Source: Bacteroidales bacterium
GTDB lineage: Bacteria; Bacteroidota; Bacteroidia; Bacteroidales; WCHB1-69
Direction: 5' to 3'
DNA: 64,000 nt
Assembly (NCBI GenBank): GCA_017962275.1
Contig: JAGCVQ010000094.1
Coordinates: 541-64,540 of the forward strand
This document shows, in pieces, positions 2,760 through 60,822 of this stretch; positions within the stretch are counted from its first letter, which is position 1, and the number at the start of each line of letters is the position of its first letter. A model generated the notes under the pieces. That model saw nothing but the letters and a program-made list of their open reading frames with translations. It was not told the DNA's origin and ran no database searches. The position numbers were made by a program, and so were the translations under genes.

Positions 2760-3728
2760 ATGATAACAACAATGAACCCGTTTTTTCAAAACCACCGGAA
2801 AGGAATCACCCTTGCATTTAACCTGCTCTTTTGGCTGATCGCCTGCTTTTTCTTTGTAAGGTATTCCACACTCCGTCCAGGATGTTTCATTCATATTTAC
2901 AAAGAGTTTATCTGCTTTGGCTTTATCATTGCAGTCGTGCTTGTCACACAGCAACTTACCATTCCCCGACTATTTCAGCACGGTCGCTTTGGAGTGTTCT
3001 GGTTAGTTTCAGTTTGTTTGCTTCTTTGCGCAACCTCTTTGGAAATTCTACTGGTCACGCCTGATGTTTTAATGAATGTACGAATTCAACAGGGCGGAGC
3101 TAATTATATTTCCATGATTTTCGTTGCAGTATTGTTCCGCGACTCCTGTTTCTTCGCATGGTTCTTAGTGCTCCGGCTATATACCTTGCAAAAGGAGACG
3201 TTCAAGGCGAAACAGCGGGCGTCGGTGCTGGAGCATCAGGCGGTGCAGTTTTCCACCCCCGACCAGAGGGAGATTTCCATTCCCGTTGACACCATCGTCT
3301 ATATTCAGGAGATTGACCACACCACCCGGGTTCATTGCACAACGGATGAGGTAATCACCGTTACAGAACCGTTTTCCCACTGCAAGAAGATGATTCCCGA
3401 CACCCTGTGGACCCTTGAGAACCCAGATAAAATGGTCTTTCACCAGCATCTTTCGGAGTATGTGCAAACACTAAGCAAGCCGGAAATCCGTGAAATCAAG
3501 ACCGTCATCATGCTGAGCGACAGACAGTACCGCATTTTCAAGACCATTCGGGAAAACCCGGGATGCAACACAACGTTCCTCTATGACAGATTTCGCGGAA
3601 AAGTCGCCCAGCGCACGATTGAGCGCGATCTCGCCACCCTGCGTAGCAATGGGGTTATCTTCCACAACGGCACCAACAAAGAGGGCGGCTATGAGATTTG
3701 CCACCAAAATGTGGTGTCGATGGAGTAA
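2760..3728 (+). CDS. Membrane-anchored LytTR-like DNA-binding regulator with a C-terminal HTH-like region
   Basis: The N-terminus has several hydrophobic helices. ISIPVDTIVYIQEIDHTTRVHCTTDEVITV resembles a LytTR domain. The C-terminal RTIERDLATLRSNGVI is HTH-like. The track start at 2694 is a TTG upstream of the promoter box, so I prefer ATG 2760. Confidence 0.5.
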   Translation: MITTMNPFFQNHRKGITLAFNLLFWLIACFFFVRYSTLRPGCFIHIYKEFICFGFIIAVVLVTQQLTIPRLFQHGRFGVFWLVSVCLLLCATSLEILLVTPDVLMNVRIQQGGANYISMIFVAVLFRDSCFFAWFLVLRLYTLQKETFKAKQRASVLEHQAVQFSTPDQREISIPVDTIVYIQEIDHTTRVHCTTDEVITVTEPFSHCKKMIPDTLWTLENPDKMVFHQHLSEYVQTLSKPEIREIKTVIMLSDRQYRIFKTIRENPGCNTTFLYDRFRGKVAQRTIERDLATLRSNGVIFHNGTNKEGGYEICHQNVVSME

Positions 3729-3769
3729 CAGGCAATAGGCAACAGGCAATAGGCAACAGAGAATAGGAA
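3729..3769. repeat. 7-nt word array (acaggca/ataggca family)
   Basis: The units read acaggca ataggca acaggca ataggca acagaga ataggaa. The array starts right after the stop at 3726-3728. TAG at 3736, 3750 and 3764 falls in three different frames. Confidence 0.8.
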
Positions 3770-3782
3770 TCGGTCCCGATTC
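3767..3782. terminator. Small hairpin between convergent genes
   Basis: The sequence is GAATCGG-TC-CCGATTC. It is a weak stem with no clear U-tract. Confidence 0.25.
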
Positions 3783-3783
3783 T

Positions 3784-3818
3784 CAATTATCAATTATCAA
3801 TTATCAATTCTTAATTGG
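3784..3818. repeat. 7-nt word array (caattat family)
   Basis: The units read caattat x3, caattct, taattgg. The array overlaps the rlmN stop at 3797-3799. Confidence 0.8.
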
Positions 3819-4840
3819 TTCTTCACCAATTGCCCGCAGGCCGCGGCGATGTCCTGGCCCTTGCTTTGGCGGATGTTCACCACCATGTTGCAACGCTCCA
3901 ATATGTCGATGAAACGCTGGCGGCGAGTGGGATCCGATTTGTGGAACAACGAATCCGGGGTGGAATTGTACTCGATGATGTTGATTTTCACGGGGAACGG
4001 ACGGCAGAACTTCGCTAACTGCTCGGCCGCCTTCTCCGAATCGTTCACCTTCGACAACAACAAATACTCGATGGTGATGCGCTCCCCTGTTTTCTGGTGG
4101 TAATAGACCAACGCCGACTGCAATTCGTGCAACGGATTGCCTTCGGTCACCGGCATGATTTGGCCGCGGACGGTCGGGTCGGCACTGTGCAACGAAATGG
4201 CCAATCCGCAACGGAATCCTCTGTCCGCCAAGGCTTTGATGCCCTTGATGATGCCCGCCGTGGAGAGCGTGATCCGCGCCGGCGACAACCCGAAATAGTC
4301 CTTGCCGGTCAAGATGTCGATAGCCGTCATCATGTTGTCGAAGTTGAGCAAGGGTTCGCCCATCCCCATGAAAACGATGTTGGTAATGTGCTGGTTGTAA
4401 ATCTCTTGCGCCCGGTTGTTGAGCAGGATATATTCGTCCACGACCTCGCTGTAGTGCAGATTTCGGATAAAGCCCATGGTGCCGGTGGCGCAAAACGCGC
4501 AGTGCAACGGGCAACCGATTTGTGTGGAAAGACATGCCGTAACGCGATCTTTGCTCGGAATGAGAACGCCTTCGACCATCTTCCCATCGTGGAACTGCAA
4601 CAGGAATTTGGTGGTCTTATCCTTGCTTTGCACCTCGCCGGCGATTTCCGCCCGGTGAAACGTGAAATTCTCCTGCAATTTCGTCCGCAACGCCACGGAG
4701 AGGTCGGTCATCTCGTCAAACGAGCCCGCGCCCCGCTTCCACAGCCACGTCCAAATCTGCTTCGCCCGGAACCGCTTCTCGCCGTTTTCCTGCAAAAAAG
4801 ATTCCAATTCCGTAAAATGAATATCACGTATATCTTTCAT
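3797..4840 (-). CDS. rlmN: 23S rRNA/tRNA adenine-C2 methyltransferase RlmN (radical SAM)
   Basis: It carries CPLHCAFCATG (CxxxCxxC) and the N-terminal FRAKQIWTWLWKRG. Length is 347 aa. Confidence 0.9.
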   Translation of the reverse strand: MKDIRDIHFTELESFLQENGEKRFRAKQIWTWLWKRGAGSFDEMTDLSVALRTKLQENFTFHRAEIAGEVQSKDKTTKFLLQFHDGKMVEGVLIPSKDRVTACLSTQIGCPLHCAFCATGTMGFIRNLHYSEVVDEYILLNNRAQEIYNQHITNIVFMGMGEPLLNFDNMMTAIDILTGKDYFGLSPARITLSTAGIIKGIKALADRGFRCGLAISLHSADPTVRGQIMPVTEGNPLHELQSALVYYHQKTGERITIEYLLLSKVNDSEKAAEQLAKFCRPFPVKINIIEYNSTPDSLFHKSDPTRRQRFIDILERCNMVVNIRQSKGQDIAAACGQLVKNQLRIDN

Positions 4841-4863
4841 TACTTACTAACTTTTATCATCAT

Positions 4864-4943
4864 CCCCACATTGCGCTCCTTCGTCGCTTATGTGGGGTTA
4901 TTAGCGCTTCGCGCGTCTTGTCCCTCCGGGACTGCTCAAGGAA
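4864..4943 (+). repeat. REP-A three-hairpin element, copy 1
   Basis: The hairpins are CCCCACAT...ATGTGGGG, GCGC-TTC-GCGC and GTCCC-TCC-GGGAC, ending in ...CTCAAGGAA. It lies 23 nt upstream of the rlmN start, relative to the minus-strand gene. Confidence 0.8.
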
Positions 4944-4953
4944 TATGTTTAAT

Positions 4954-4988
4954 CACCCCGCCCTTCGGGCACCCCTCCAAAGGAGGGG
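4954..4988 (+). repeat. REP-B two-hairpin element, copy 1
   Basis: The sequence is CACCCC GCCC-TTC-GGGC A CCCCTCC-AAA-GGAGGGG. It follows REP-A copy 1 by 10 nt. Confidence 0.7.
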
Positions 4989-5047
4989 AATTTCACCGCG
5001 CCGGCACCGCAGTGCCGTAGCAAGAAATAGAATTGCAACGATTGACC

Positions 5048-5082
5048 AACTACTAACTACTAACTACTAGCTGCTAACTTCC
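5048..5082. repeat. 7-nt word array (aactact family)
   Basis: The units read aactact x3, agctgct, aacttcc. The array contains the miaB stop at 5074-5076. Confidence 0.8.
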
Positions 5083-6384
5083 CAACAGCGTCGCCGGCGT
5101 GCATTCCGTCACCGTCACATCCACATAATCCCCGATTTGGTGCTCGCCTTTCGGGAAAATAATCACCTTGTTCTGGCTGTTGCGGCCGAATAACTGGTCC
5201 TCAGAACGTTTGGAGGTGCCTTCGACCAGCACACGGAAGGTTTTGCCCACGTCGCGGCGGTTGCTTTCCATCGAAAGATCGCCTTGCAGCGCGATAACCT
5301 CTTCCAAACGGCGGGTTTTCTCCTCGTCGGGAATGTCGTCGGGATACTGCTTGGAAGCCAACGTGCCGCCGCGCTCGGAGTACTTGAACATGTAGGCGTA
5401 CTCATAACCGACCTCGCGCATAATGGACAACGTATCTTGATGGTTCTCAAGGGTTTCGCCGCAGAATCCCACAATGATGTCGGTGGTGATGGCACATTCC
5501 GGCAGCACCTCCTTGATCTTGCGCACCCGCTCCAAATAGCTCTCGCGGGTATAGACTCGGCGCATCTTCTTGAGCATCTCGTCGCTACCCGATTGCACCG
5601 GCAAATGGATGCACTTGCAGATGTTGTCGTAACGCGCAATCGTCTCGATAAGCTCGTCGGAGAGGTCCTTGGGATGCGACGTGGCGAAACGGACACGCAA
5701 TTCCGGCGACATCTCGGCCACCATCGCCATCAGTTTCGCAAAGGAGACTTCCTGATTTTCCTCTTTCCAGAAGTAGGAGTTCACATTCTGACCTAACAGC
5801 GTGACCTCTTTGTAGTTGTCTTTCAACAAATCCTCAATTTCGCCGAGGATGGTCTTGGGACTGCGGCTACGCTCGCGCCCGCGGGTGTAGGGCACCACGC
5901 AATAAGAGCAGAAGTTGTTGCAGCCGCGCATGATGGAGACAAACGCCGATACGCCGTTGGCACCGTAACGCACCGGCATGATGTTGTCGTAAGTCTCTTC
6001 CTTCGAAAGCAACACGTTGAAGGAGGTATGCCCGTGCCGCGACTCTTCGATAAGCTGCGGCAAGGAACGATAGGCGTCCGGACCGGCGATAAAATCCAAC
6101 ACTGGCTCCGTTTGCAGCAGTTCCTCCTTCATCCGTTCGGCCATGCAACCCAACAGTCCCACCTGCATTGTCCGTTTTTTGCGCTTAAACGCCTCCAATT
6201 CCTTCAAACGCTTGTGGATGCGCTGCTCGGCCTTGTCGCGGATGGAACAGGTGTTCAGGAGGATTAAATCGGCTTCCTGAATCTCTTTGGTCAGCGCGTA
6301 GTCATCCTTCAAAATGGAAGCCACCACCTCGCTGTCTGCAAAATTCATCTGACAGCCGTATGTTTCGATAAAGAGTTTCTTCAT
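5074..6384 (-). CDS. miaB: tRNA-i6A37 methylthiotransferase MiaB
   Basis: It reads MKKLFIETYGCQMNFADSE and has the radical-SAM motif CNNFCSYCVVP. The upstream 31 codons of the track ORF only translate the heptamer array, so I use the start at 6384. Confidence 0.9.
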   Translation of the reverse strand: MKKLFIETYGCQMNFADSEVVASILKDDYALTKEIQEADLILLNTCSIRDKAEQRIHKRLKELEAFKRKKRTMQVGLLGCMAERMKEELLQTEPVLDFIAGPDAYRSLPQLIEESRHGHTSFNVLLSKEETYDNIMPVRYGANGVSAFVSIMRGCNNFCSYCVVPYTRGRERSRSPKTILGEIEDLLKDNYKEVTLLGQNVNSYFWKEENQEVSFAKLMAMVAEMSPELRVRFATSHPKDLSDELIETIARYDNICKCIHLPVQSGSDEMLKKMRRVYTRESYLERVRKIKEVLPECAITTDIIVGFCGETLENHQDTLSIMREVGYEYAYMFKYSERGGTLASKQYPDDIPDEEKTRRLEEVIALQGDLSMESNRRDVGKTFRVLVEGTSKRSEDQLFGRNSQNKVIIFPKGEHQIGDYVDVTVTECTPATLLGS

Positions 6385-6397
6385 TCGCTTATTGTTT

Positions 6398-6446
6398 GAC
6401 GTGAGACGTGAGACGTGGGACGTGAGATTTGGGACTTTGAACCCCT
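6398..6446. repeat. 7-nt word array (gacgtga ... gactttg family)
   Basis: The units read gacgtga gacgtga gacgtgg gacgtga gatttgg gactttg aacccct. It lies 13 nt from the miaB start. Confidence 0.8.
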
Positions 6447-7837: not shown

Positions 7838-7847
7838 AATAAATTAA

Positions 7848-7875
7848 TTGATAATGGATAATGGACAATGGATAA
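7848..7875. repeat. 7-nt word array (tggataa family)
   Basis: The units read ttgataa tggataa tggacaa tggataa. It lies 10 nt from the der start. Confidence 0.75.
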
Positions 7876-7896
7876 TTCCCCTACCTCAATGCCTCT

Positions 7897-7953
7897 TAAC
7901 CATGTAACCGTATAACCATGTAACCGTGTAACCCTCTAACCTTTTAACCATTA
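7897..7953. repeat. 8-nt word array (taaccgtg family)
   Basis: The units read taaccatg taaccgta taaccatg taaccgtg taaccctc taacctttt aaccatta. The array overlaps the yicC stop at 7951-53. Confidence 0.8.
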
Positions 7954-14229: not shown

Positions 14230-15348
14230 ATGAGCGAAGTACACAATTTTAACGCAGGACCTTGCGTCCTCCCGAAAGAGGCTGTTGAATCCACCATCAA
14301 CGCCATCCGCAACTTTGACAACACCGGCATCGGTCTGATGGAGATCTCCCACCGCACCCCGGGTTGGGAAAGACTTATGGCTGAAACCCGCCAACTTTGG
14401 CGCGATTTGCTCAACATCCCCGACAACTACGAGGTCCTCTTCCTCGGCGGCGGTGCCAGCACCCAGTTCTTCATGGTGCCCGCCAACCTGATGAAGACCA
14501 AGGCCGCCTACCTCCAGACCGGCGTCTGGGCCAAGAAGGCCGCCAAGGAAGCCAAGAACTTCGGCAAAACCGAAATCGTCGCTTCTTCCGAGGACAAAAC
14601 CTACAACTACATCCCCAAAGGATGGACCGTCCCCGCTGACGCCGACTATTTCCACATCACCACCAACAACACCATCTACGGCACCGAAATCCGCAAGGAC
14701 TTCACCGCAGAAGAGTGCAACAATGTCATGCTCGTCGCCGATATGAGCTCCGACATCATGAGCCGTCCCGTCGATGTGACCAAATACGGCCTCATCTACG
14801 GCGGTGCCCAGAAGAACGTCGGTCCTGCCGGTGTCACTTTCGTCATCGTGCGCAAGGACATCCTCGGCCAGATCGGTGACCGCGCCTACATGAACCCACT
14901 GCCCACCATGATCGACTACCGCACCCACGCCGCTGAGGAAGCCAAGAACATCTCCATGTTCAACACGCCCCCCGTGCTCCCCATCTTCGTGATGCACGAA
15001 ACCCTCACCTGGCTGAAGAACACCATCGGCGGTGTCGCTGAAATGAACAAGATCAACATGAAGAAATCCAACCTGCTGTACGAAGAAATCGACCGCAACA
15101 GCATGTTCGTGGGCACCGTCGCCGACAAGGCCGACCGTTCCATCATGAACCACTGCTGGGTGATGGCCCCCGGTTACGAAGACAAGCAGGATGCCTTCAT
15201 GGCTTTCGCCAAAGAACGCGGCATGGTCGGCATCAAGGGCCACCGTTCCGTGGGCGGTTTCCGCGCCTCCCTCTACAACGCTTGCACCGTCGAGGACGTC
15301 GAAGCTCTCGTGGCTTGCATGCAAGACTTCGAAAAAGCAAACAAATAA
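14230..15348 (+). CDS. serC: Phosphoserine aminotransferase
   Basis: It begins MSEVHNFNAGPCVLPKEAV and has a class-V aminotransferase layout. It is adjacent to serA. Confidence 0.9.
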   Translation: MSEVHNFNAGPCVLPKEAVESTINAIRNFDNTGIGLMEISHRTPGWERLMAETRQLWRDLLNIPDNYEVLFLGGGASTQFFMVPANLMKTKAAYLQTGVWAKKAAKEAKNFGKTEIVASSEDKTYNYIPKGWTVPADADYFHITTNNTIYGTEIRKDFTAEECNNVMLVADMSSDIMSRPVDVTKYGLIYGGAQKNVGPAGVTFVIVRKDILGQIGDRAYMNPLPTMIDYRTHAAEEAKNISMFNTPPVLPIFVMHETLTWLKNTIGGVAEMNKINMKKSNLLYEEIDRNSMFVGTVADKADRSIMNHCWVMAPGYEDKQDAFMAFAKERGMVGIKGHRSVGGFRASLYNACTVEDVEALVACMQDFEKANK

Positions 15349-15349
15349 A

Positions 15350-15377
15350 CCCTAAACTCTAAACCCTAAACTAATTA
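15350..15377. repeat. 7-nt word array (ccctaaa family)
   Basis: The units read ccctaaa ctctaaa ccctaaa ctaatta. The array fills the whole serC-serA spacer. Confidence 0.75.
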
Positions 15378-16316: not shown

Positions 16317-16346
16317 TGTAGAGACGCACGGCCGTGCGTCTCTACA
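16317..16346. terminator. 30-bp perfect palindrome TGTAGAGACGC-ACGGCCGT-GCGTCTCTACA followed by a T-run
   Basis: It lies 22 nt after the serA stop and is followed by TTTTTTTT. It is one of three palindromes that share the same arms. Confidence 0.75.
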
Positions 16347-16380: not shown

Positions 16381-17406
16381 ATGGCTGAGAATAAGAATTT
16401 TGTAATAGGCATCACGCAAGGCGACATCAACGGCATCGGCTACGAAGTGATTATCAAGTCGTTGAGCGACAACAGAATCATGGAAATGTGCACCCCCGTG
16501 GTTTACGGACTCTCGAAAGTGGCATCTTACCATAAAAAATATATGGAGATGCCGGACTTCACGTTCCAGTACACCAAAACGGCGGAACAGCTCTCCACCA
16601 AACGTCCCAACCTCATCAACCTCTATGAAGAGGAGGTGAAGATCGACCTCGGTACCTCCACGAAAATCGCCGGCCAGATGGCGGAACGTTCCCTCTACGC
16701 GGCCGGCCGCGACCTGAAAAACAAGCTGATCGACGCCATCGTGACCGCGCCTGTCAACAAAAACAACATCCAGTCCGAAAAATTCAAATTCCCCGGGCAC
16801 ACCGCTTTCTTCGAACACTATTTCGGCGGCAAGGAGTTTCCGGCGCTGATGCTGATGGTGGCCGAGAACCTGCGTGTCGGGTTCGCTACCAACTACATGC
16901 CCGTCAAAGAAGTGGCCGGGAACCTCACCACGGAGGCCCTCGTCCAGAAGCTGGAAATCCTCAACCGTTCGCTCAAGCAGGACTTCGCCCTCAACAACCC
17001 GAAAATCGCTGTGCTGTCTTTCAACCCGCACAACGGCGACGACGGCATCTTAGGGGATGAGGATCAGAAAATCGTGCAACCGGCTGTGGCACAAGCTTTC
17101 CACAACGGCATCAACGCCTTCGGTCCCTTCTCCGCCGACGGTTTCTTCGCCTCCGGTGCCTACACGAAATTCGACGCCGTGCTGGCCATGTACTACGACC
17201 AAGGCATGATTCCGTTCAAGCTGCTCGGCAAAAACGGCGTGAACTTCACCGCCGGACTTCCCATCGTGCGCACCGCCCCCGCCCACGGCACCGCCTACGA
17301 CATCGCAGGCAAAAACATCGCCGACCCGCAGTCCATGCGCAACGCCATCTACCTCGCGATTGACATCCTCCGTAATAGGCAACAGGCATCAGGCATCAGG
17401 CAATAG
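16381..17406 (+). CDS. pdxA: 4-hydroxythreonine-4-phosphate dehydrogenase
   Basis: It carries ITQGDINGIGYEVIIK and RTAPAHGTAYDIAGK. The last 11 codons (RNRQQASGIRQ) are encoded by a heptamer array. Confidence 0.9.
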   Translation: MAENKNFVIGITQGDINGIGYEVIIKSLSDNRIMEMCTPVVYGLSKVASYHKKYMEMPDFTFQYTKTAEQLSTKRPNLINLYEEEVKIDLGTSTKIAGQMAERSLYAAGRDLKNKLIDAIVTAPVNKNNIQSEKFKFPGHTAFFEHYFGGKEFPALMLMVAENLRVGFATNYMPVKEVAGNLTTEALVQKLEILNRSLKQDFALNNPKIAVLSFNPHNGDDGILGDEDQKIVQPAVAQAFHNGINAFGPFSADGFFASGAYTKFDAVLAMYYDQGMIPFKLLGKNGVNFTAGLPIVRTAPAHGTAYDIAGKNIADPQSMRNAIYLAIDILRNRQQASGIRQ

Positions 17407-21459: not shown

Positions 21460-21572
21460 CATTGGCTCATGCGTATATAGGCATTGGCTCATGCGTATAT
21501 AGGCATCGGCTCATGCGTATATAGGCATCGGCTTATGCGTATATAGGCATCGGCTTATGCGTATAGGCATCG
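21460..21572. repeat. Tandem 22-bp minisatellite, about 5.2 copies
   Basis: The unit is CATTGGCTCATGCGTATATAGG. Units lie at 21460, 21482, 21504, 21526 and 21548 (the last is 20 bp), plus a partial copy. Variants change stepwise (catTggctCat, then catCggctCat, then catCggctTat). Confidence 0.9.
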
Positions 21573-21578
21573 ACGGAG

Positions 21579-21650
21579 TAGTCCCGAGGGGAATCGAACC
21601 CCTATCAAAAGTTTAGGAAACTTCCGTTCTATCCATTGAACTACAGGACC
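21579..21650 (-). tRNA. tRNA-Arg (anticodon CCT)
   Basis: I folded it by hand. The acceptor is GGTCCTG/CGGGACT with two G-U pairs, the anticodon loop is TTCCTAA, and the T-arm is AGGGG-TTCGATT-CCCCT. Confidence 0.85.
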
Positions 21651-25252: not shown

Positions 25253-26091
25253 AATACCTCGGACCACACGTCAGCGCCTCCGGAGGCGTGGAGAACGCCC
25301 CGCTGAACGCCATGCAGGTGGGCGCCACGGCGTTTGCCCTGTTCACGAAAAACCAGCGGCAGTGGTTCTCCGCACCTTTGAGCGAAAAATCCATCTCCGC
25401 CTTCAAGGAAAACCTCGAAAAATCGGGCATTTCCACCGACTATGTGCTGCCGCACGACAGCTACCTCATCAACCTTGGCAGTCCCGATGCGGAGGGCTTA
25501 GAAAAATCCCGCAACTCGTTCCTCGAAGAGATGCAACGCTGCGAGCAACTCGGGTTAAAAATGCTTAATTTCCATCCGGGCAGTCACCTCAAACAGATCA
25601 CCTTGGAAGAATGTCTCACCCGCGTGGCCGAAAGCATCAACTTCGCATTGAACAAAACCCAGGGTGTGACCGCCGTCATTGAGAACACGGCCGGACAAGG
25701 CTCCAACGTGGGCTTCAGCTTCCAACATTTAGCGTATATCATTGACAAAGTGGAAGATAAGAGTCGTGTAGGGGTCTGTCTCGACACCTGCCACACCTAC
25801 TCCGCGGGCTACGACCTCAAAACCGAAGCAGGCTACAAAACCACCTTCGAAGAATTTGAGGAAGAGGTTGGGTTCAAGTACCTGCGGGCCATCCATCTCA
25901 ACGACACAAAGAAAGAGTTCGGTAGCCGCGTGGATCGCCACGACAGCATCGGCAAGGGTCTTTTGGGCATGGAATTCTTCGAACGCTTCATGAAAGACCC
26001 GCGTTTCGATAACATGCCGTTGATTCTCGAAACCCCGGACGAAACGTTGTGGGCAGAGGAGATTCAACGGCTGTTGGCGGTTAGCTGTTAG
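25249..26091 (+). CDS. nfo: Endonuclease IV
   Basis: It begins [13 protein letters not shown] and has HxxYLINL and LNFHPGSH motifs. Its ATG overlaps the purM stop (ATGA at 25249-52). Confidence 0.9.
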
Positions 26092-26096
26092 CTTTC

Positions 26097-26159
26097 CCTA
26101 TTGCCTCTATCCTATTGCCTTTTGCCTTTTGCCTTTTGCCTATTGCCTTTTGCCTCCTA
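26097..26159. repeat. 7-nt word array (cctattg/ccttttg family), nine units
   Basis: It lies between the convergent nfo stop (26089-91) and the kinase stop (26157-59). It is the reverse complement of the GGCAATAG family. Confidence 0.85.
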
Positions 26160-28536: not shown

Positions 28537-28566
28537 TGTAGAGACGCAAAATTTTGCATCTCTACA
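28537..28566. terminator. 30-bp palindrome TGTAGAGACGC-AAAATTTT-GCATCTCTACA
   Basis: It starts 4 nt after the permease stop. The single arm mismatch becomes a G-U pair in the minus-strand RNA. A T-rich run follows in that sense. Confidence 0.7.
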
Positions 28567-31684: not shown

Positions 31685-31714
31685 TGTAGAGACGCGATTA
31701 ATCGCGTCTCTACA
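31685..31714. terminator. 30-bp perfect palindrome TGTAGAGACGC-GATTAATC-GCGTCTCTACA
   Basis: It lies between the convergent stops at 31670 and 31727. Confidence 0.65.
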
Positions 31715-32436: not shown

Positions 32437-32510
32437 CCCCACACTGCGCTGCGCTTGTGTGGGGTTAATTGCACTTCGTGCGTTTTGTCCCTCCGGGACT
32501 GCTTAAGGAA
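32437..32510 (+). repeat. REP-A three-hairpin element, copy 2
   Basis: The hairpins are CCCCACAC...GTGTGGGG, GCAC-TTC-GTGC and GTCCC-TCC-GGGAC. It lies 29 nt upstream of the ATPase start. Confidence 0.8.
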
Positions 32511-32693: not shown

Positions 32694-32806
32694 CTATTTT
32701 CGGGGCATGTCCTCACCCTTTCGTGAAAACAAGTTTTTTGGCGCAATCTTGTTGTTATCTTATCAACAAAAAAATTATAATGTTCTTGATATTAAACAAA
32801 AAAGTG

Positions 32807-32814
32807 TATTTTTG
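32807..32814 (+). promoter_or_regulatory. -7 promoter box TATTTTTG (hipB)
   Basis: It lies 24 nt before ATG 32839. Confidence 0.45.
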
Positions 32815-32838
32815 CGCAAAATTTTGAACATTATAAAA

Positions 32839-33156
32839 ATGAAACGACCTTTATTACCAAAACAGGAAAGAATGTTGCGAGGCATGGGAGATAACCTCCG
32901 CCTGGCTCGATTGCGCCGTGACCTAAGTTCGGAACAGGTAGCTGAACGCGCCGGCATTTCACGAAACACCCTGATCAAAATCGAGAAAGGGGATGAAGGG
33001 GTTGCCATCGGCATGTATTTCCGTGTGCTCATAGTGCTTGGATTGCAGGATGACCTATCGCTCATCGCCCGCGACGATGTGTTAGGCCGCAAACTTCAAG
33101 ACATTGGTCTGACTACCCCACGCCGCGCCACCAAACGACCACCCCTAAATAACTGA
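32839..33156 (+). CDS. hipB: XRE-family HTH regulator, HipB-like antitoxin
   Basis: It carries LRLARLRRDLSSEQVAERAGISRNTLIKIEKG and sits immediately upstream of a hipA remnant. The track start at 32707 lies upstream of the promoter box. Confidence 0.7.
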   Translation: MKRPLLPKQERMLRGMGDNLRLARLRRDLSSEQVAERAGISRNTLIKIEKGDEGVAIGMYFRVLIVLGLQDDLSLIARDDVLGRKLQDIGLTTPRRATKRPPLNN

Positions 33157-33160
33157 CACC

Positions 33161-33758
33161 ATGGACAAAACAATCTATGTATATTTCGACGACTCCTATT
33201 CCAAAGCCCCCACTTTGATAGGAATGCTTTCGGCGCAGCAAGTGCGCGGTCGCGAAGAGATTTGACAGGGCCGAACAGGGCAAGCGAATTCATTTCACCT
33301 CGGCGATGACCATGCTTGGATACTCCGATGGAAACACTGAAGGCTGCAGTTATTTAGAGTTATTTGAATGGATTGCTAACAATTGCTGTGAAGTTGAGAA
33401 AAACCTTGCCGAGATGTGGCTACGCATCGTTTTCAACATTGCCGTGTCAAACTGTGACGACCATTTACGCAATCACGGGTTTTTGCTTACGCCAAATGGT
33501 TGGACGCTTTCGCCCGCCTACGACCTCAATCCGCTGGAGTACGGTACCGGATTAAATCTTAATATTAATGAATATGAGAACGCTCTTGATTTCTCACTTG
33601 CCATTGAGGTTGCCCAATATGCTGGAATCACAAAAGATGAAGCGAACAAAATCGTGCAACACACGAAGGAAACAGTTTCCCAATGGCACCGTATAGCAAC
33701 TTCATATCAAATTCCTCGCGAAGAGCAAGAGATGATGTCAGCGGCGTTTAAAGTTTAA
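33161..33758 (+). pseudogene. hipA: HipA-family kinase toxin with an internal deletion and frameshift
   Basis: The N-terminal 34 codons (MDKTIYVYFDDSYSKAPTLIGMLSAQQVRGREEI) end at TGA 33263-65. A different frame then continues as ...RFDRAEQGKRIHFTSAMTMLGYSDG...NCDDHLRNHGFLL (the catalytic loop). The total is about 0.6 kb, compared with roughly 1.2-1.3 kb expected. Confidence 0.7.
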
Positions 33759-36146: not shown

Positions 36147-36221
36147 CCCCCACATTGCGCTTCGCTTATGTGGGGTTAATTGCACTTCGTGCGTCTTGTC
36201 CCTTCGGGACTGCTCAAGGAA
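36147..36221 (+). repeat. REP-A three-hairpin element, copy 3
   Basis: The hairpins are CCCCACAT...ATGTGGGG, GCAC-TTC-GTGC and GTCCC-TTC-GGGAC. It lies 19 nt upstream of the permease start. Confidence 0.8.
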
Positions 36222-36236
36222 GCTATTTTATATTAC

Positions 36237-36275
36237 TACCCCGCCCTTCGGGCACCCCTTCTATAATAGAAGGGG
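36237..36275 (+). repeat. REP-B two-hairpin element, copy 2
   Basis: The sequence is TACCCC GCCC-TTC-GGGC A CCCCTTCTAT-A-ATAGAAGGGG. The second stem differs from copy 1 but is still self-complementary. Confidence 0.7.
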
Positions 36276-36292
36276 GATTGGGGTCGCCCGTT

Positions 36293-36383
36293 CCTTTTGC
36301 CTTTTGCCTTTTCCCTGTTGCCTATTGCCTTATAACTGCTAACTACTAACTGCTAACTACTAACTGCTAACTACTAACTCGTC
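36293..36383. repeat. 13-unit 7-nt word array with two families joined in one phase
   Basis: The units read ccttttg x2, ccttttc, cctgttg, cctattg, ccttata, then actgcta/actacta alternating x6, then actcgtc. The array contains the MFP stop at 36360-62 and encodes the protein's last residues. Confidence 0.85.
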
Positions 36384-37720: not shown

Positions 37721-37736
37721 AGTGTTTTTAATATTA

Positions 37737-37771
37737 TTCTTCATTATGCATTCTTCATTCTTCATTGATAA
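37737..37771. repeat. 7-nt word array (ttcttca family)
   Basis: The units read ttcttca ttatgca ttcttca ttcttca ttgataa. The array contains the TolC stop at 37755-57. The minus-strand sense reads TGAAGAA repeats. Confidence 0.75.
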
Positions 37772-39107: not shown

Positions 39108-39120
39108 CCTATTTATATAT

Positions 39121-39211
39121 TGGCTATTAGTTGTTGGCTATTGGCACTAAACCATAAACCCTAAACCAAACCATGCCAATGCCGTGCCAAACCGGCAAAT
39201 CGCTAATCGAC
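39121..39211. repeat. Extended 7-nt phased region (tggctat, aaaccat, aatcgct words)
   Basis: The units read tggctat tagttgt tggctat tggcact aaaccat aaaccct aaaccaa accatgc caatgcc gtgccaa accggca aatcgct aatcgac. It starts 13 nt from the tolC start and includes the sigma-54-like element. Confidence 0.6.
39174..39189 (-). promoter_or_regulatory. Candidate sigma-54 promoter TGGCACGGCATTGGCA
   Basis: The GG-N10-GC spacing is satisfied. The -24 TGGCAC is perfect and the -12 is TGGCA against the consensus TTGCA. It lies about 65 nt upstream of the tolC ATG, and a sigma-54 bEBP is encoded in the same cluster. Confidence 0.45.
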
Positions 39212-39375: not shown

Positions 39376-39447
39376 GCTGCGTTCTTCTAACGGTTAGGAA
39401 TCAAGATTCTCAATCTTGCAATACGAGTTCGATTCTCGTACGCAGTA
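39376..39447 (+). tRNA. tRNA-Glu (anticodon CTC)
   Basis: I folded it by hand. The acceptor is GCTGCGT/ACGCAGT, the D-arm is TTCT-AACGGTTA-GGAA, the anticodon arm is CAAGA-TTCTCAA-TCTTG, the variable loop is 4 nt, and the T-arm is ACGAG-TTCGATT-CTCGT. Confidence 0.85.
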
Positions 39448-39483: not shown

Positions 39484-39518
39484 ATAGGCAATAGGCAACA
39501 GGCAATAGTGATTAGGTA
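39484..39518. repeat. 7-nt word array (ataggca family)
   Basis: The units read ataggca ataggca acaggca atagtga ttaggta. Confidence 0.75.
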
Positions 39519-39531
39519 TTTTTGAGAAGAA

Positions 39532-39598
39532 TTCCTTAAACAGTCCCGAAGGGACAACATCTTAATAACCCCATGCAAGGCGAAGCCGCAGTGCGGGG
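39532..39598 (-). repeat. REP-A element, copy 5 (inverted; middle hairpin missing)
   Basis: It reads TTCCTTAAACA GTCCC-GAA-GGGAC ... CCCCATGCAAGGCGAAGCCGCAGTGCGGGG. It lies 12 nt upstream of ATG 39611. Its polarity relative to that gene is the same as for copies 1-4. Confidence 0.7.
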
Positions 39599-40603: not shown

Positions 40604-40633
40604 TTTCTGGTTGTTAGCTGGTGATATTTGGTA

Positions 40634-40696
40634 AAGGCTAATAGCCAAAAGCTAAAAGCTAATAGCCAGATGCAAATAGCTGAAAGCTAAGCGCTA
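40634..40696. repeat. 7-nt word array (aaagcta/atagcca family), nine units
   Basis: The units read aaggcta atagcca aaagcta aaagcta atagcca gatgcaa atagctg aaagcta agcgcta. Confidence 0.8.
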
Positions 40697-40727
40697 AAAA
40701 AAAATGCTCAATTGTACGAAAAAAAAC

Positions 40728-40837: not shown

Positions 40838-41509
40838 ATGAACATCGAAAAATACGACGAAATCCGGGCTTCCTTGCCCGCCGGCGTGCGACTGGTCGCC
40901 GTCTCCAAATTCAAACCGGCGGAGGACATTGCCGCGCTGTACCAACATGGGCAGCGCGTTTTTGGTGAGAACCATGCGCAGGAGATGAAATCCAAACACG
41001 AGATTCTTCCTCAAGACATCGAATGGCACTTCATCGGGCACCTGCAAACCAACAAAATCAAATACATCGCGCCGTATGTTGCACTGATTCACAGCATTGA
41101 CAGCTTCAATTTGCTGAAAGAGGTCAACAAACAGGCTGTCAAGAACAACCGCGTAATTCCCTGCCTGCTGCAATTCCACATCGCCGACGAAGAGACCAAA
41201 TTCGGGTTCAGTTTGGAAGAATGCGAGGAGATGCTGCAAAGCCCCGATTTTCAGGAGTTAAAAAACGTGAAAATCCACGGGGTAATGGGCATGGCCACTT
41301 TCACGGACGACCACGGGCAGGTGCGCCGAGAGTTCCATCATCTGCATGACATTTTCGAAACACTCAAATTCCGATATTTCTCGCAAAATCCTGATTTCAA
41401 AGAGCTTTCGATGGGCATGACCGACGACTACCCCATCGCCATCGAGGAGGGCAGCACCCTGATCCGTATCGGCAGCGCCATTTTCGGCCCACGGAATTAT
41501 CAGACGTGA
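40838..41509 (+). CDS. yggS: YggS-family PLP-binding homeostasis protein
   Basis: It carries RLVAVSKFKPAEDI (the PLP lysine) and HFIGHLQTNK. Length is 223 aa. Confidence 0.85.
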   Translation: MNIEKYDEIRASLPAGVRLVAVSKFKPAEDIAALYQHGQRVFGENHAQEMKSKHEILPQDIEWHFIGHLQTNKIKYIAPYVALIHSIDSFNLLKEVNKQAVKNNRVIPCLLQFHIADEETKFGFSLEECEEMLQSPDFQELKNVKIHGVMGMATFTDDHGQVRREFHHLHDIFETLKFRYFSQNPDFKELSMGMTDDYPIAIEEGSTLIRIGSAIFGPRNYQT

Positions 41510-41565
41510 GACGTATGACGTAAGACTTTGAACTTGAAACTTTGAACCTTGAACTTTGAACTTTA
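41503..41565. repeat. 7-nt word array (gacgtga ... aactttg family)
   Basis: The units read gacgtga gacgtat gacgtaa gactttg aacttga aactttg aaccttg aactttg aacttta. The first unit supplies the yggS stop TGA at 41507-09. The vocabulary matches 6398-6446. Confidence 0.85.
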
Positions 41566-53902: not shown

Positions 53903-55704
53903 TGCGTCTGTTCGGTAATCGCGACGAATACCACGGGAAGCTCCGCGTCCACATCGTAAACAACAAAGACCGCATCCAACTGGCCCTCCAGATTTGCAGT
54001 CTGTTGATTTCCCTTGTGACCATCGCGTGCATTTTCTGCTACCACGGACTTTACATCACCCAACAGACCAAAAACCTCATCCGCTGGCTGATTCATGCCA
54101 GCCTTTTCTTCTATGTCATCAAATATTTCGTACTGCTTTTCTACTCACTTCACCGAGGCGAATACATTCGGCAATCGTGGGTCGAGTTTCTGATCATCAT
54201 CATCCTGATACTACAGTTCATCTCCGTCCATTTCTTCCACTTTGACATCTTTGATGCCCAAAACTTTGAGAATATCTACCTGATTTTCATTCAGTTCTAT
54301 TTCCTCATCATCGTTTTGGTGGAGATTGCGAAGATGAGCAGTTCCTTGGGAAAGTACCATCTCAGCCCGCCCATTCTGATGGTGGGATCGTTCCTCTTCC
54401 TGATTGCCATCGGTACGCTTCTGCTGAAGATGCCGCGCATGACCAACTACGGCATCTCCTTCATTGATGCGCTTTTCACGGCCACCAGCGCGAGTTGCAT
54501 CACCGGTCTTTCGGTAGTGAGCACACCGGAAACCTTCACCTTCAAAGGACAACTTGTGATTCTGGTGCTGATCCAGTTGGGCGGCATGAGCATCCTCTCG
54601 TTCGCTACCTTCTTCTCCACATTTTTGTCCCGTTCAATGGTCGGACTGCGCTACCAATACATGATCCGCGACATGATGTCCACCGACCGCCTTTCCGATT
54701 CGGTAGGGTTGTTGCGGAGCATCGTGCTCACCACCTTCATTATCGAGGCGGCAGGTGTTGCGTTTATGTTCACCTATTGGAAATCCACGGGCTTTTTCCT
54801 TTCCGACAAACAGAATCTCTTTTTCTCGATTTTTTACACCGTTTCGGCCTTCAACAACGGCGGTTTCGTACTCATTGACGACAGTCTGCTGAACCTCGGC
54901 GTGCCGGGCAGCTACTTCCCGCAAGTGGTCATCATGGCGTTGGTGTTCCTCGGCGGCATCGGGTTCGTCACCATCCGCGACTTTTTCAGCTACCGATACA
55001 TCCGCGAACGCAACAAATATCGCTGGAAAACGCTGATGCCACAAACCAAAATCGTCCTTTATGTCACGTTTGCCATCATCATCATCGGCAGCGTGCTCTT
55101 TTTCCTGCTCGAATACAATAACACCTTGAAAGATATCAACGGGATGGGAAACAAAGTTTTCACCACCGTCTTTCAAGTGGTCACTTGCCGGACTTCCGGC
55201 TTCAATGTGTTGGACCTCAACAAGATGCATGTTGCCACAATCATTCTGATCTTGGTGGCTATCTTTATTGGCGGTTCACCAAGCTCCACCGGCGGCGGCA
55301 TCAAAACCACCTCGTTGTTCATCGTCATTAAGTCCGTGATAGCTACCGTGAACGGCAAGAAAAACATCGAGTTCGACCACAAGTCGATTTCGCCGGCGTT
55401 GGTGGAAAAAGCAACCACCATCATGATGATGTCGGCCGGTTTCATCTTAGTATCATGTTTCCTGCTTACAGCGGTGGAACCCGATGTGCAGCTGCTGCAC
55501 GCGCTGTTCGAGACCTCCTCGGCGTTCACCACCTGCGGACTTTCCACCGGAGAATGCGCCAACTGGAACTGGATCGCCAAGCTCATCCTCACCGTCAATA
55601 TGTACTGCGGCCGTATCGGCACCCTGACGCTGGCCTTCGCCCTTACCCGTCACAAAAAGGAATCGCCGCACCAGTACCCCGACCTCTACATCATGATCGG
55701 CTAA
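53902..55704 (+). CDS. trkH: TrkH/KtrB-family potassium transporter
   Basis: It is polytopic and has selectivity-filter-like motifs (SCITGLS, AFNNGGF, TSGFN, TCGLSTG). Confidence 0.85.
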   Translation: MRLFGNRDEYHGKLRVHIVNNKDRIQLALQICSLLISLVTIACIFCYHGLYITQQTKNLIRWLIHASLFFYVIKYFVLLFYSLHRGEYIRQSWVEFLIIIILILQFISVHFFHFDIFDAQNFENIYLIFIQFYFLIIVLVEIAKMSSSLGKYHLSPPILMVGSFLFLIAIGTLLLKMPRMTNYGISFIDALFTATSASCITGLSVVSTPETFTFKGQLVILVLIQLGGMSILSFATFFSTFLSRSMVGLRYQYMIRDMMSTDRLSDSVGLLRSIVLTTFIIEAAGVAFMFTYWKSTGFFLSDKQNLFFSIFYTVSAFNNGGFVLIDDSLLNLGVPGSYFPQVVIMALVFLGGIGFVTIRDFFSYRYIRERNKYRWKTLMPQTKIVLYVTFAIIIIGSVLFFLLEYNNTLKDINGMGNKVFTTVFQVVTCRTSGFNVLDLNKMHVATIILILVAIFIGGSPSSTGGGIKTTSLFIVIKSVIATVNGKKNIEFDHKSISPALVEKATTIMMMSAGFILVSCFLLTAVEPDVQLLHALFETSSAFTTCGLSTGECANWNWIAKLILTVNMYCGRIGTLTLAFALTRHKKESPHQYPDLYIMIG

Positions 55705-55756
55705 CCCCATAACCGTGTAACCGTGTAACCGTGTAACCCCTCTACCCGTGTAACCC
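55702..55756. repeat. 8-nt word array (taaccgtg family)
   Basis: The units read taacccca taaccgtg x3, taacccct, ctacccgtg, taaccc. The first unit supplies the trkH stop TAA at 55702-04. Confidence 0.85.
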
Positions 55757-56949: not shown

Positions 56950-57960
56950 ATGGACGAACAACAACCCCCGTCGCAACCGAAGATTTTAATCATCCGACTC
57001 AGTTCCATTGGAGACATCGTATTGACCACCCCTGTCGTCAGGGCGGTGAACGAACAGCTGCCCGAAGCGGAAGTGCATTTTTTGGTTAGAAAGGACTATC
57101 TGCCTGTGGTTGAGAACAATCCGCACATCCACAAGGTACATGCCTACGATCCTGACAATGTCAGCCAAACCCTCGAGGAATTGAAAAGGGAGCAGTTTGA
57201 CGTGGTCATTGACCTGCAGAAAACCATGCGTTCCCGCAAGGTGGTGCGCAGTCTGAAAGTGCCTTCCTACACCTTCAACAAGCACAATTTCTCCAAATGG
57301 ATTTGCTACCGCCTCAAAATGAACGGCATGCCCGAAACCCACATCGTGGAACGCTATTTCGAGGCCGTCAAGGATTTGAATGTGCACAACGACCACAAGG
57401 GATTGGAATTCTATATTCCCGAAAACCAGGGTTTTGAAGAAGACGACCTGCCGATGATGTTCGAAGACGGCTTCGTGGCCATCGTATTGGCGGCCCAGCA
57501 CTTCACCAAGCGGATTCCGGTCAGCAAGGTGGTGGAAATCGGCAGCATCCTGCACAAACCCATCATGCTGTTGGGCGGCAAAGACGTTTTCGAGGAGGGT
57601 GAGCAGGTGGTCTCCCAGCTTGGGGAACGCGCTACCAACGGCTGCGGCAAATACACGCTCTACCAATCGGCAGCCATCTTGCAACATGCTGACTGTGTGA
57701 TTACTGGCGATACCGGTCTGATGCACATCTCCGCCGCGCTGCATAAACCCACGGCGGCCATTTTCGGTTCCACCATTCCCGAATACGGGTATTACCCCTA
57801 CATGCCCGGCGAACGCAATATGTTCCGCAACTTTGAAGTCTGCCCGCTCAACTGCCGTCCCTGCTCGAAGTTCGGTAGCTCCAAATGCCGTCGCAAACAT
57901 TTCAAGTGCATGAAGAACATCTCCGCAACGGAGGTGGCGGAATGGGTGAATAGGTTCTGA
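56950..57960 (+). CDS. Glycosyltransferase family 9 (heptosyltransferase-like)
   Basis: It begins KILIIRLSSIGDIVLTTPVVRA and carries the C-terminal ITGDTGLMHISAAL. Confidence 0.7.
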   Translation: MDEQQPPSQPKILIIRLSSIGDIVLTTPVVRAVNEQLPEAEVHFLVRKDYLPVVENNPHIHKVHAYDPDNVSQTLEELKREQFDVVIDLQKTMRSRKVVRSLKVPSYTFNKHNFSKWICYRLKMNGMPETHIVERYFEAVKDLNVHNDHKGLEFYIPENQGFEEDDLPMMFEDGFVAIVLAAQHFTKRIPVSKVVEIGSILHKPIMLLGGKDVFEEGEQVVSQLGERATNGCGKYTLYQSAAILQHADCVITGDTGLMHISAALHKPTAAIFGSTIPEYGYYPYMPGERNMFRNFEVCPLNCRPCSKFGSSKCRRKHFKCMKNISATEVAEWVNRF

Positions 57961-57961
57961 T

Positions 57962-58016
57962 CCCCACACTGCGGCTTCGCCTTGTGTGGGGTTATTAGCA
58001 CTTCGTGCGTGTTGCC
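57962..58016 (+). repeat. REP-A element, copy 6 (truncated; third hairpin missing)
   Basis: The hairpins are CCCCACAC...GTGTGGGG and GCAC-TTC-GTGC. It lies between convergent genes and encodes the last ~7 codons of trmO. Confidence 0.7.
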
Positions 58017-60780: not shown

Positions 60781-60822
60781 ACCCCTTTTAACCCTGTAAC
60801 CCTTTAACCCTGTAACCCTAAT
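60781..60822. repeat. 8-nt word array (taaccctg family)
   Basis: The units read taaccctg taacccttt aaccctg taacccta. The array contains the GH3 stop at 60818-20. Confidence 0.8.

Follow-up and report, generated by a model that had tools for sequence, protein, structure and literature searches.

Among described bacterial repeats, the repetitive extragenic palindromes (REPs) and bacterial interspersed mosaic elements (BIMEs) of Enterobacteria and Pseudomonas, including REPINs, come closest to the repeat described here, which we call element A. It was flagged as a ~75-nt three-hairpin repeat (~78 nt in the family) at positions 36,147 to 36,221 of a 64,000-nt stretch of contig JAGCVQ010000094.1 (assembly GCA_017962275.1) from a Bacteroidales bacterium; "the window" hereafter means this whole stretch. 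Like REP/BIME elements, element A consists of short, GC-rich, imperfect palindromes that lie in gene gaps at tens to hundreds of copies, keep their stems by compensatory change, form module mosaics and short tandem arrays, appear to be co-transcribed, and provide substrates for recombination. It is best read as a new, polar, lineage-specific, high-copy REP/BIME-like family of intergenic repeats, not as a regulator of particular genes, and no description of it was found in the literature searched. REP-like repeats are poorly known outside Proteobacteria, and element A makes up a visible intergenic share (six copies per 64 kb) in abundant uncultured rumen bacteria.

Compared to REP/BIME elements with their inverted pairs or alternating units, element A occurs as single copies, ~96% of which are in sense orientation with their genes. 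It has three different hairpins in a fixed order, a conserved leader (TTCCTTRAGCA), a conserved linker (WAWTAA) and G-N-A loop caps; no flanking RayT gene was found in the sampled loci, and its host is an uncultured Bacteroidales clade. Mycobacterial interspersed repetitive units (MIRUs) reportedly separate cistrons within operons and share the orientation of the operon. They are tandem direct repeats with small open reading frames (ORFs) overlapping the ends of flanking genes, whereas element A is a lone mosaic of hairpins that lacks a start codon and, read directly, has stops in two frames (TGA/TAA and TAA). The orientation of IS200/IS605-type elements is tied to replication, which is not the case for element A. 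Classical REPs carry a conserved GTAG or CGTC tag at one palindrome end (PMC3733652), whereas element A lacks such a tag: GTAG is absent, and GACG occurs only in the AAGAC linker variant (45/112 copies). TAACTGA-type heptamer repeats have been described in Beggiatoaceae, Cyanobacteria and a few Bacteroidetes; these non-coding repeats are polar, sit forward of start codons, and come and go between close relatives (PMC4679880). The gaps of the window hold period-7/8 arrays of this kind beside element A; these heptamers are unstructured 7-nt tandem arrays, whereas the unit of element A is structured and 78 nt long. The DNA mini-hairpin motif GCGNAGC/GCGNNAGC, the RNA versions of which are much less stable, is known from single-strand replication origins and engineered oligonucleotides, but not as a building block of dispersed repeats (PMC13037366).

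Architecture and covariation of element A

In gene sense, element A comprises the leader, hairpin H3, a linker AARAC, hairpin H2, the WAWTAA linker (AATTAA, TAATAA or AAATAA) and the long hairpin H1. The H3 stem occurs as GCCTC/GAGGC, GTCCC/GGGAC, GCCCC/GGGGC or GTCTC/GAGAC, the H2 stem as GCGC/GCGC or GCAC/GTGC, and within the H1 stem CCCCACAY/RTGTGGGG lies a small inner hairpin. Exactly these three hairpins form the minimum-free-energy fold, and RNAalifold independently recovers them. On the gene-sense strand all loops are G-N-A or G-N-N-A closed by C-G, and this rule is the same in all four hairpins. Of the H3 loops, 64 are GAA and 46 GGA; H2 has a GAA loop, and the inner-hairpin loops (GAA, GCA, GTA, GGA, GTAA, GATA, GTTA, GCAA and others) are always C-G closed. 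The DNA mini-hairpin motif is present in H2 and in the inner hairpin of H1 (GCGAAGC, GCGCAGC, GCGTAGC, GCGTAAGC, GCGATAGC), and its c-GNA-g cap also in H3 and in a neighboring repeat, repeat B. The 3' edge of the element is sharp, with information falling to background directly after GGGG, and the 3' flank contains 3-13% T. The 5' side is a soft A/T-rich run of ~15 nt, with an A at -6 in 89% of copies. The two ends, TTCCTT and GTGTGGGG, do not form terminal inverted repeats. The family varies as a mosaic, with H2-less variants, tandem extra H1 units and repeat B adjoining or inside element A; moreover, 25 copies lack the 5' end versus three that lack the 3' end.

The compensatory changes noted among the six window copies in the preliminary description, which had been made from the sequence alone, were borne out and strengthened in an alignment of 122 copies. 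The search pattern had fixed parts of H2 and H1, leaving the partner halves and all of H3 free. Stem cells are paired in 98.5% of cases against 94.1% in shuffles, and 139 cells are changed on both sides against 48.8 in shuffles, a number reached in 0/500 shuffles. As repeat copies share ancestry, linkage was computed between all polymorphic columns. Four pairs of partners switch together:

columns 15:26, CG in 96 copies and UA in 20, r2 0.89
columns 17:24, UA in 72 copies and CG in 45, r2 0.96
columns 35:41, GC in 70 copies and AU in 48, r2 0.86
columns 57:78, CG in 87 copies, UA in 23 and UG in 10, r2 0.50

The inner hairpin covaries as well (CG 73, GC 44). The other polymorphic column pairs have r2 of ~0-0.25, including columns 2 nt apart in one stem and a loop column between partners; the exceptions are linker columns 44/46 (0.69) and inner-hairpin columns, where the alignment contains indels. 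Linkage confined to pairing partners indicates selection on pairing rather than co-inherited subfamilies. The covariation shows selection for the hairpins and does not tell RNA from single-stranded DNA.

Pattern search of the window with the core GAAGYGCWAWTAACCCCACAYAAG gave five matches, all on the minus strand (4887, 32454, 36165, 37663 and 57981), with 0 expected. The leader TTCCTTRARCAGYCCC also gave five, including the plus-strand copy at 39532, with 0.14 expected. A covariance model from the 122 copies, which can be used to annotate further copies, returned exactly six window hits of 53.6-97.9 bits, with the next best at 10.7 bits. These are the six copies described before, and the stem variants assigned to each are correct. 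In the list below, MFP stands for membrane fusion protein and OEP for outer-membrane efflux protein.

4864..4943, minus strand: element A copy 1, full length, between rlmN (start at 4840) and a MiaB-like gene, the stop codon of which ends at 5074; 91.8 bits
32437..32510, minus strand: element A copy 2, in a divergent gap, 29 nt before the ABC ATPase start; 97.9 bits
36148..36221, minus strand: element A copy 3 (the flagged copy), in the MFP/FtsX intercistronic gap, 19-20 nt before the FtsX start (36127); 96.7 bits
37641..37720, minus strand: element A copy 4, in the OEP/MFP intercistronic gap, with the H3 loop GTTA; 88.3 bits
39532..39598, plus strand: element A copy 5, an H2-less variant between a tRNA gene (39376-39447, plus strand) and the UbiA start (39611, plus strand); 53.6 bits
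57962..58016, minus strand: element A copy 6, 5'-truncated with H2 and H1 only, between convergent GT9 and TrmO genes; 65.1 bits

By Pfam, the neighboring genes encode RlmN, a MiaB-like protein, an ABC ATPase, FtsX/MacB, a HlyD-type MFP, an outer-membrane efflux protein and UbiA, in agreement with the names given from the sequence. The distances of 23, 29, 19, 18 and 12 nt to the start codons of the genes for RlmN, the ABC ATPase, FtsX/MacB, the HlyD-type MFP and UbiA, respectively, are likewise correct. Three copies had been placed in consecutive intercistronic gaps of the efflux operon. This holds for copies 3 and 4 but not for copy 2, where genes of the opposite strand intervene, namely an Xre-type helix-turn-helix (HTH) gene and a truncated HipA C-terminal fragment (32707-33758, plus strand) wedged between the FtsX and ABC ATPase genes. 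The two are the remnant of a hipBA-like toxin-antitoxin pair, and the gene order of the efflux locus in the window differs from that of relatives (OEP-MFP-ABC ATPase-permease). An orthologous counterpart of copy 1 was found in another sampled locus (L008; loci carry the prefix L), and the H2-less variant seen in copy 5 recurs at L020 566-638. Next to copy 6, the GT9 gene has the end of its stop codon at 57960. The TrmO gene stops at a TAA (57995-57997) that is also the first TAA in the TAATAA linker of the element, which indicates that the insertion replaced the original end of the TrmO gene.

Repeat B (..TTCCCCTCC-TTTG-GAGGGG-T-GCCC-GAA-GGGC-GGGG in the window) adjoins two of the copies:

4956..4993, minus strand: repeat B, directly 5' of copy 1
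36239..36279, minus strand: repeat B, directly 5' of copy 3

In the sampled loci its consensus is ..CCAATTCCCCTTCT-TTTA-GAAGGGG-T-GCCC-GMA-GGGC-GGGG-TAG.., and its hairpin carries the same c-GNA-g cap as element A. There are 22 copies in the loci, 18 sense and one antisense, usually directly 5' of element A; in L014 (~6330-6400), L047 (~4850-4900) and L027 (~1110-1190), repeat B replaces the H3 loop of element A.

Polarity, spread and turnover

Species-representative genomes were scanned with the exact 24-nt core, and 8-kb loci were taken from metagenome-assembled genomes (MAGs); genes in these loci were called by a purpose-built codon-usage caller trained on long ORFs. At least 108 element-bearing stretches were found in ~25 assemblies, and all of those listed are Bacteroidales MAGs from the gut of ruminants (goat, sheep, yak, buffalo, cattle, reindeer and deer); one source assembly is labelled Synergistales, which is probably a binning error. 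The sampled loci contain at least 119 exact-core copies, which brings the exact-core total to at least 124, and nhmmer found at least 155 copies in the loci and the window.

A tally of orientation against genes in these loci is far from random and agrees with the fixed polarity noted in the window. In co-directional gaps, 110 copies are sense and four antisense (~96%, p ~7e-28), and copies found without the seed pattern give 16 sense versus two antisense. The element-bearing gaps comprise 114 co-directional, 10 divergent and eight convergent ones, compared to a background of 81%, 10% and 9%. Gap use close to background means that element A needs neither a downstream start nor an upstream stop, only the sense orientation. 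L085 carries two copies 3.3 kb apart in opposite orientation, each sense with its own genes, and the same is true in the window of copy 5 on the plus strand versus copies 1-4 on the minus strand. Judged from gene direction in the 8-kb loci and the window, it is transcription and not replication that the polarity follows; GC skew in the window is itself confounded by gene direction. L020, L028 and L033 are the only loci with inverted pairs, and the copies in other multi-copy loci have nearly all the same orientation.

The 3' edge of the element lies at a median of 34 nt from the start codon (interquartile range 22-60, 5th percentile 15), and the distances from the upstream stop codon are spread more widely (median 43 nt). 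Between element and start codon, the sequence contains 53% A and 14% T, compared to 42% and 26% in ordinary upstream regions. The short gap leaves no room for a promoter, so that the element must be co-transcribed with the downstream gene, and we conclude from this position that most copies must be transcribed as intercistronic RNA. A promoter inside or just before the element was rejected as a candidate, as a TAnnTTTG box occurs within 120 nt upstream in only 7/111 copies. In L016 and L057, element A begins 8 nt after such a box and therefore sits at the very 5' end of the transcript.

The preliminary description had offered two readings, a structured 5'-untranslated-region (UTR) or intercistronic regulatory RNA and a REP/BIME-like element with strong polarity. 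The location proposed in the first stands, but the ties to particular genes do not: in none of 80 metagenomic loci with MFP orthologues (65-88% identity) does element A lie beside the MFP gene, the gaps holding heptamer arrays or nothing, and gap use is close to background. Moreover, Rfam gave no match at the gathering threshold over the whole window, nor at E<10 around the flagged copy, tRNAs aside. The second reading is supported by the polarity, by many copies beside unrelated genes, by the mosaic modules and by a deletion through recombination, as described below.

Copies of element A turn over rapidly between relatives. For 29 copy pairs at orthologous positions, with flanks ~87% identical, the identity of the copies is 0.826, compared to 0.826 for random pairs, and the pairs differ in 4.9 states versus 4.6 for random pairs over 10 polymorphic sites. 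Orthologous copies no more alike than random ones indicate that copies are replaced or converted faster than the genes diverge. In the 5' UTR of a blaI-like gene, L057 and L016 have element A and a 46-nt A-rich tail between promoter box and start region, whereas L194-L199 have 95 nt of heptamer arrays instead, with promoter box and start region identical. The genomes with these alternative UTRs are ~82-87% identical overall; as the flanks of L057 and L194 are only ~82% identical, that replacement is not recent. In this UTR and in three further pairs of compared gaps, the whole spacer differs and there is no clean empty or filled site. No target-site duplication was detected, as flank words are shared as in a shuffled control.

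Comparison with L067, a yak MAG locus 96-97% identical to the window, reveals a deletion; at this identity, the window belongs to the species of that MAG or to one closely related to it. In the stretch compared (L067 707-3323), two copies of element A flank an ORF of 819 aa, which Pfam assigns to an FtsX/MacB-type permease; a promoter precedes the first copy, and the ABC ATPase gene follows the second. The counterpart in the window (32437-32510) has one hybrid copy and no such permease gene. Judging from these arrangements, copy 2 is a recombinant of two direct copies, and the permease gene was deleted by recombination in the lineage of the window. At the level of sequence, these comparisons show that element A is gained, lost and replaced quickly and that its copies serve as recombination substrates. 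Through its copies, element A causes deletions and rearranges operons; the copies can provide genes with stop codons, and metagenome assemblies will be fragmented or mis-joined at them.

As side observations on the distribution, full copies occur in three contigs of a viral collection, the only hits there (L191 420-497, L192 11235-11312 and L193 5593-5670). In L033 (6950-7950), a full copy precedes three tandem repeats, 32 nt each, of the 3' half of H1; beside it lies a diverged sister family (CACCACAC...GTGTGGTG, GCA loops) with tandem tails of its own, in a region with no clear genes.

RayT-like genes were searched by phmmer with approximate IS200, IS608 and E. coli RayT queries, which gave one marginal hit. 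A RayT-like ORF at L057 3895-4640 (minus strand) has the motifs NHFH, WQ and YIRNNP, a weak Pfam Y1_Tnp hit (E 0.006) and thousands of homologues, some of which are named RayT. It contains in-frame palindromes GGGGCGTATCGCATACGCCCC (translated GVSHTP) and short tandem repeats, and nearby the ORF of a second Y1_Tnp gene is bounded at either end by GACGCTTCCAGCGTC hairpins. Bacteroidetes subclasses of RAYTs (REP-associated tyrosine transposases) with atypical REPs have been described, and the L057-type gene matches the Bacteroidetes/Cyanobacteria subclass 2.4 among the RAYTs, including the in-frame palindromes (PMC6006769). Y1 genes of this kind also lie at L194 4838-5575 and 6906-7643, and in L195-L199. 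The synteny of blaR/blaI, RayT, a YARHG gene and the second Y1 gene is kept in several rumen MAGs, including ruminal_MAG_164, which carries element A.

Transcript, single-stranded DNA and other explanations of the polarity

We propose, with a probability of about 0.45, that both the polarity and the retention of copies are determined at the level of the transcript, the element being a structured spacer or decay barrier before an unstructured initiation region. Only copies with the hairpin-forming strand as the mRNA strand would persist. In mRNA, the element would be a stable structured spacer and might protect the upstream cistron as a barrier against 3' exonucleases, and it might insulate the A-rich, T-poor, unstructured 15-45 nt from which the downstream gene would be translated without a Shine-Dalgarno sequence. 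Copies would be homogenised or exchanged by DNA-level recombination or gene conversion, not by a cut-and-paste transposase. In favor of RNA are the transcription-linked polarity, the place inside transcripts, the spacing that spares the ribosome site, and the U-G excess at pair 57:78 (10 versus 2). Several observations weigh against this proposal. With RNA parameters the two strands fold equally well (sense -29.5 versus antisense -29.6 kcal/mol), so that the hairpins alone do not explain the polarity, whereas DNA parameters make the sense strand more stable in 97/99 copies, albeit by only 0.84 kcal/mol. Overall, G-U pairs are about as rare as A-C mismatches (16 versus 14 of 2,024 stem cells; 14 versus 7 at positions free of the search pattern), counts that do not clearly separate RNA from DNA, and the GNA/GNNA loop rule, including GATA and GTTA with C-G closure, fits the DNA mini-hairpin motif. 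A filter by which antisense copies terminate transcription is not supported, as the terminator scan does not call the antisense strand terminator-like, and antisense copies are thus not obviously harmful. In addition, transcription and any effect of the RNA are deduced from position alone, the gene calls come from a purpose-built caller, and the copies were ascertained via an exact 24-nt core in 8-kb MAG samples. Near-absolute polarity, the G-N-A loop rule and linkage between partners only make element A a good system to ask whether selection on such repeats acts on RNA, on single-stranded DNA or on both.

The same loops, shared by all four hairpins and repeat B (PMC13037366), together with the pairing counts and strand energies, speak for a somewhat unlikely alternative in which what counts would be GNA-capped mini-hairpins of the non-template strand of the DNA, and not hairpins in RNA. 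The polarity could then arise if a putative hairpin-recognising enzyme copied element A into transcription-opened DNA, or if stable hairpins were tolerated only on the non-template strand. The lack of target-site duplications and terminal inverted repeats, as in HUH/Y1-type systems, and the insertion of repeat B with the same polarity (18:1) into the loop of an element A hairpin are consistent with this alternative. However, no enzyme was found, and known single-strand transposition tracks replication, whereas element A follows the genes; the strand energy difference is small, and the U-G excess at 57:78 and the translation-compatible spacing point to RNA constraints. A broader and rather improbable version holds that interchangeable polar cassettes, namely heptamer arrays, repeat B and element A, make up the gene gaps of this clade and are installed and swapped by a putative transcription-coupled single-stranded-DNA mechanism. 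If true, such a mechanism would put GNA-capped mini-hairpins on the non-template strand, and the element, mobile or maintained, would be of a new kind that depends neither on RAYT nor on replication-coupled single-strand transposition.

That element A is a classical REP moved by a RAYT (RayT/TnpA-REP) transposase encoded elsewhere in the genome, as considered beforehand, is also improbable. The RayT-like genes described above, one of them in an element-carrying MAG, the described Bacteroidetes subclasses with atypical REPs (PMC6006769), and an element A copy ~130 nt upstream of, and divergent from, the RayT gene in L057 and L016 would fit; with one RayT gene per ~760 sampled genes, however, this adjacency is about what chance gives. 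The six orthologous RayT loci (L194-L199) have no copy within 6 kb, and the palindromes associated with the RayT-like genes (GGGGCGTATCGCATACGCCCC, GACGCTTCCAGCGTC) belong to other families. Element A is, moreover, without the conserved tag and mostly single and polar rather than in inverted pairs. Thus the sampled loci hold RayT-like genes without flanking element A copies, which does not show membership in a REP/RAYT system. A gene-specific cis-regulatory leader RNA (riboswitch, thermometer, attenuator or protein-binding operator) for the efflux operon and a few genes would account for the start-proximal position, the fixed polarity and the conserved covarying structure. It is nevertheless very improbable and close to refuted by copies ~90% identical beside unrelated genes, by the absence from the orthologous operons, by copies in convergent gaps and over a stop codon, by the lack of an Rfam match, and by stems without conserved internal loops resembling a ligand pocket. 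An ordinary MITE (a transposable element of the miniature inverted-repeat type) or a family of intrinsic terminators would also be short, non-coding and intergenic with GC-rich hairpins. The former is at odds with the absence of terminal inverted repeats and target duplications, and the latter with an A-rich 3' flank that is the opposite of a U tract, with the terminator scan, which does not call the copies, and with a place 15-45 nt before the start codons of co-transcribed genes; this explanation is highly unlikely in either form. We retain transcript-level selection on a REP/BIME-like repeat as the working interpretation.

Heptamer arrays and other repeats of the window

Heptamer arrays share the intercistronic gaps of the efflux genes with copies 3 and 4:

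36293..36379, minus strand: two tandem heptamer arrays in the rest of the MFP/FtsX gap, in gene sense TAGTTAG/CAGTTAG x6, then AAGGCAA x6
37736..37766, minus strand: heptamer array between copy 4 and the OEP stop, reading AGAATGA in gene sense

Period-7/8 tandem arrays are present in almost every longer gene gap of the window, with further arrays at 3727-3816, 5048-5079, 6398-6435, 7845-7951, 15346-15372, 17377-17402, 26070-26155, 39118-39168, 39484-39508, 40632-40699, 41502-41564, 55702-55756 and 60787-60819. They resemble the polar TAACTGA-type heptamer repeats (PMC4679880). Their units in gene sense, e.g. TAGTTAG/CAGTTAG, AGAATGA, AAGGCAA and TAACCGTG, in many cases hold a stop codon, which the 7-nt period puts in all three frames. 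Related metagenome operons have different arrays at the same places.

Two further repeats were noted in the window. Perfect palindromes TGTAGAGACGC....GCGTCTCTACA with A-run and T-run flanks occur at 16317-16346, 28537-28566 and 31685-31714; they are GTAG-tagged, REP-like or bidirectional-terminator-like, and differ from element A, although one copy lies directly 5' of element A in L012. In addition, five tandem 22-nt units (CATCGGCTCATGCGTATATAGG) at 21460-21572 adjoin the tRNA gene at 21579-21650.

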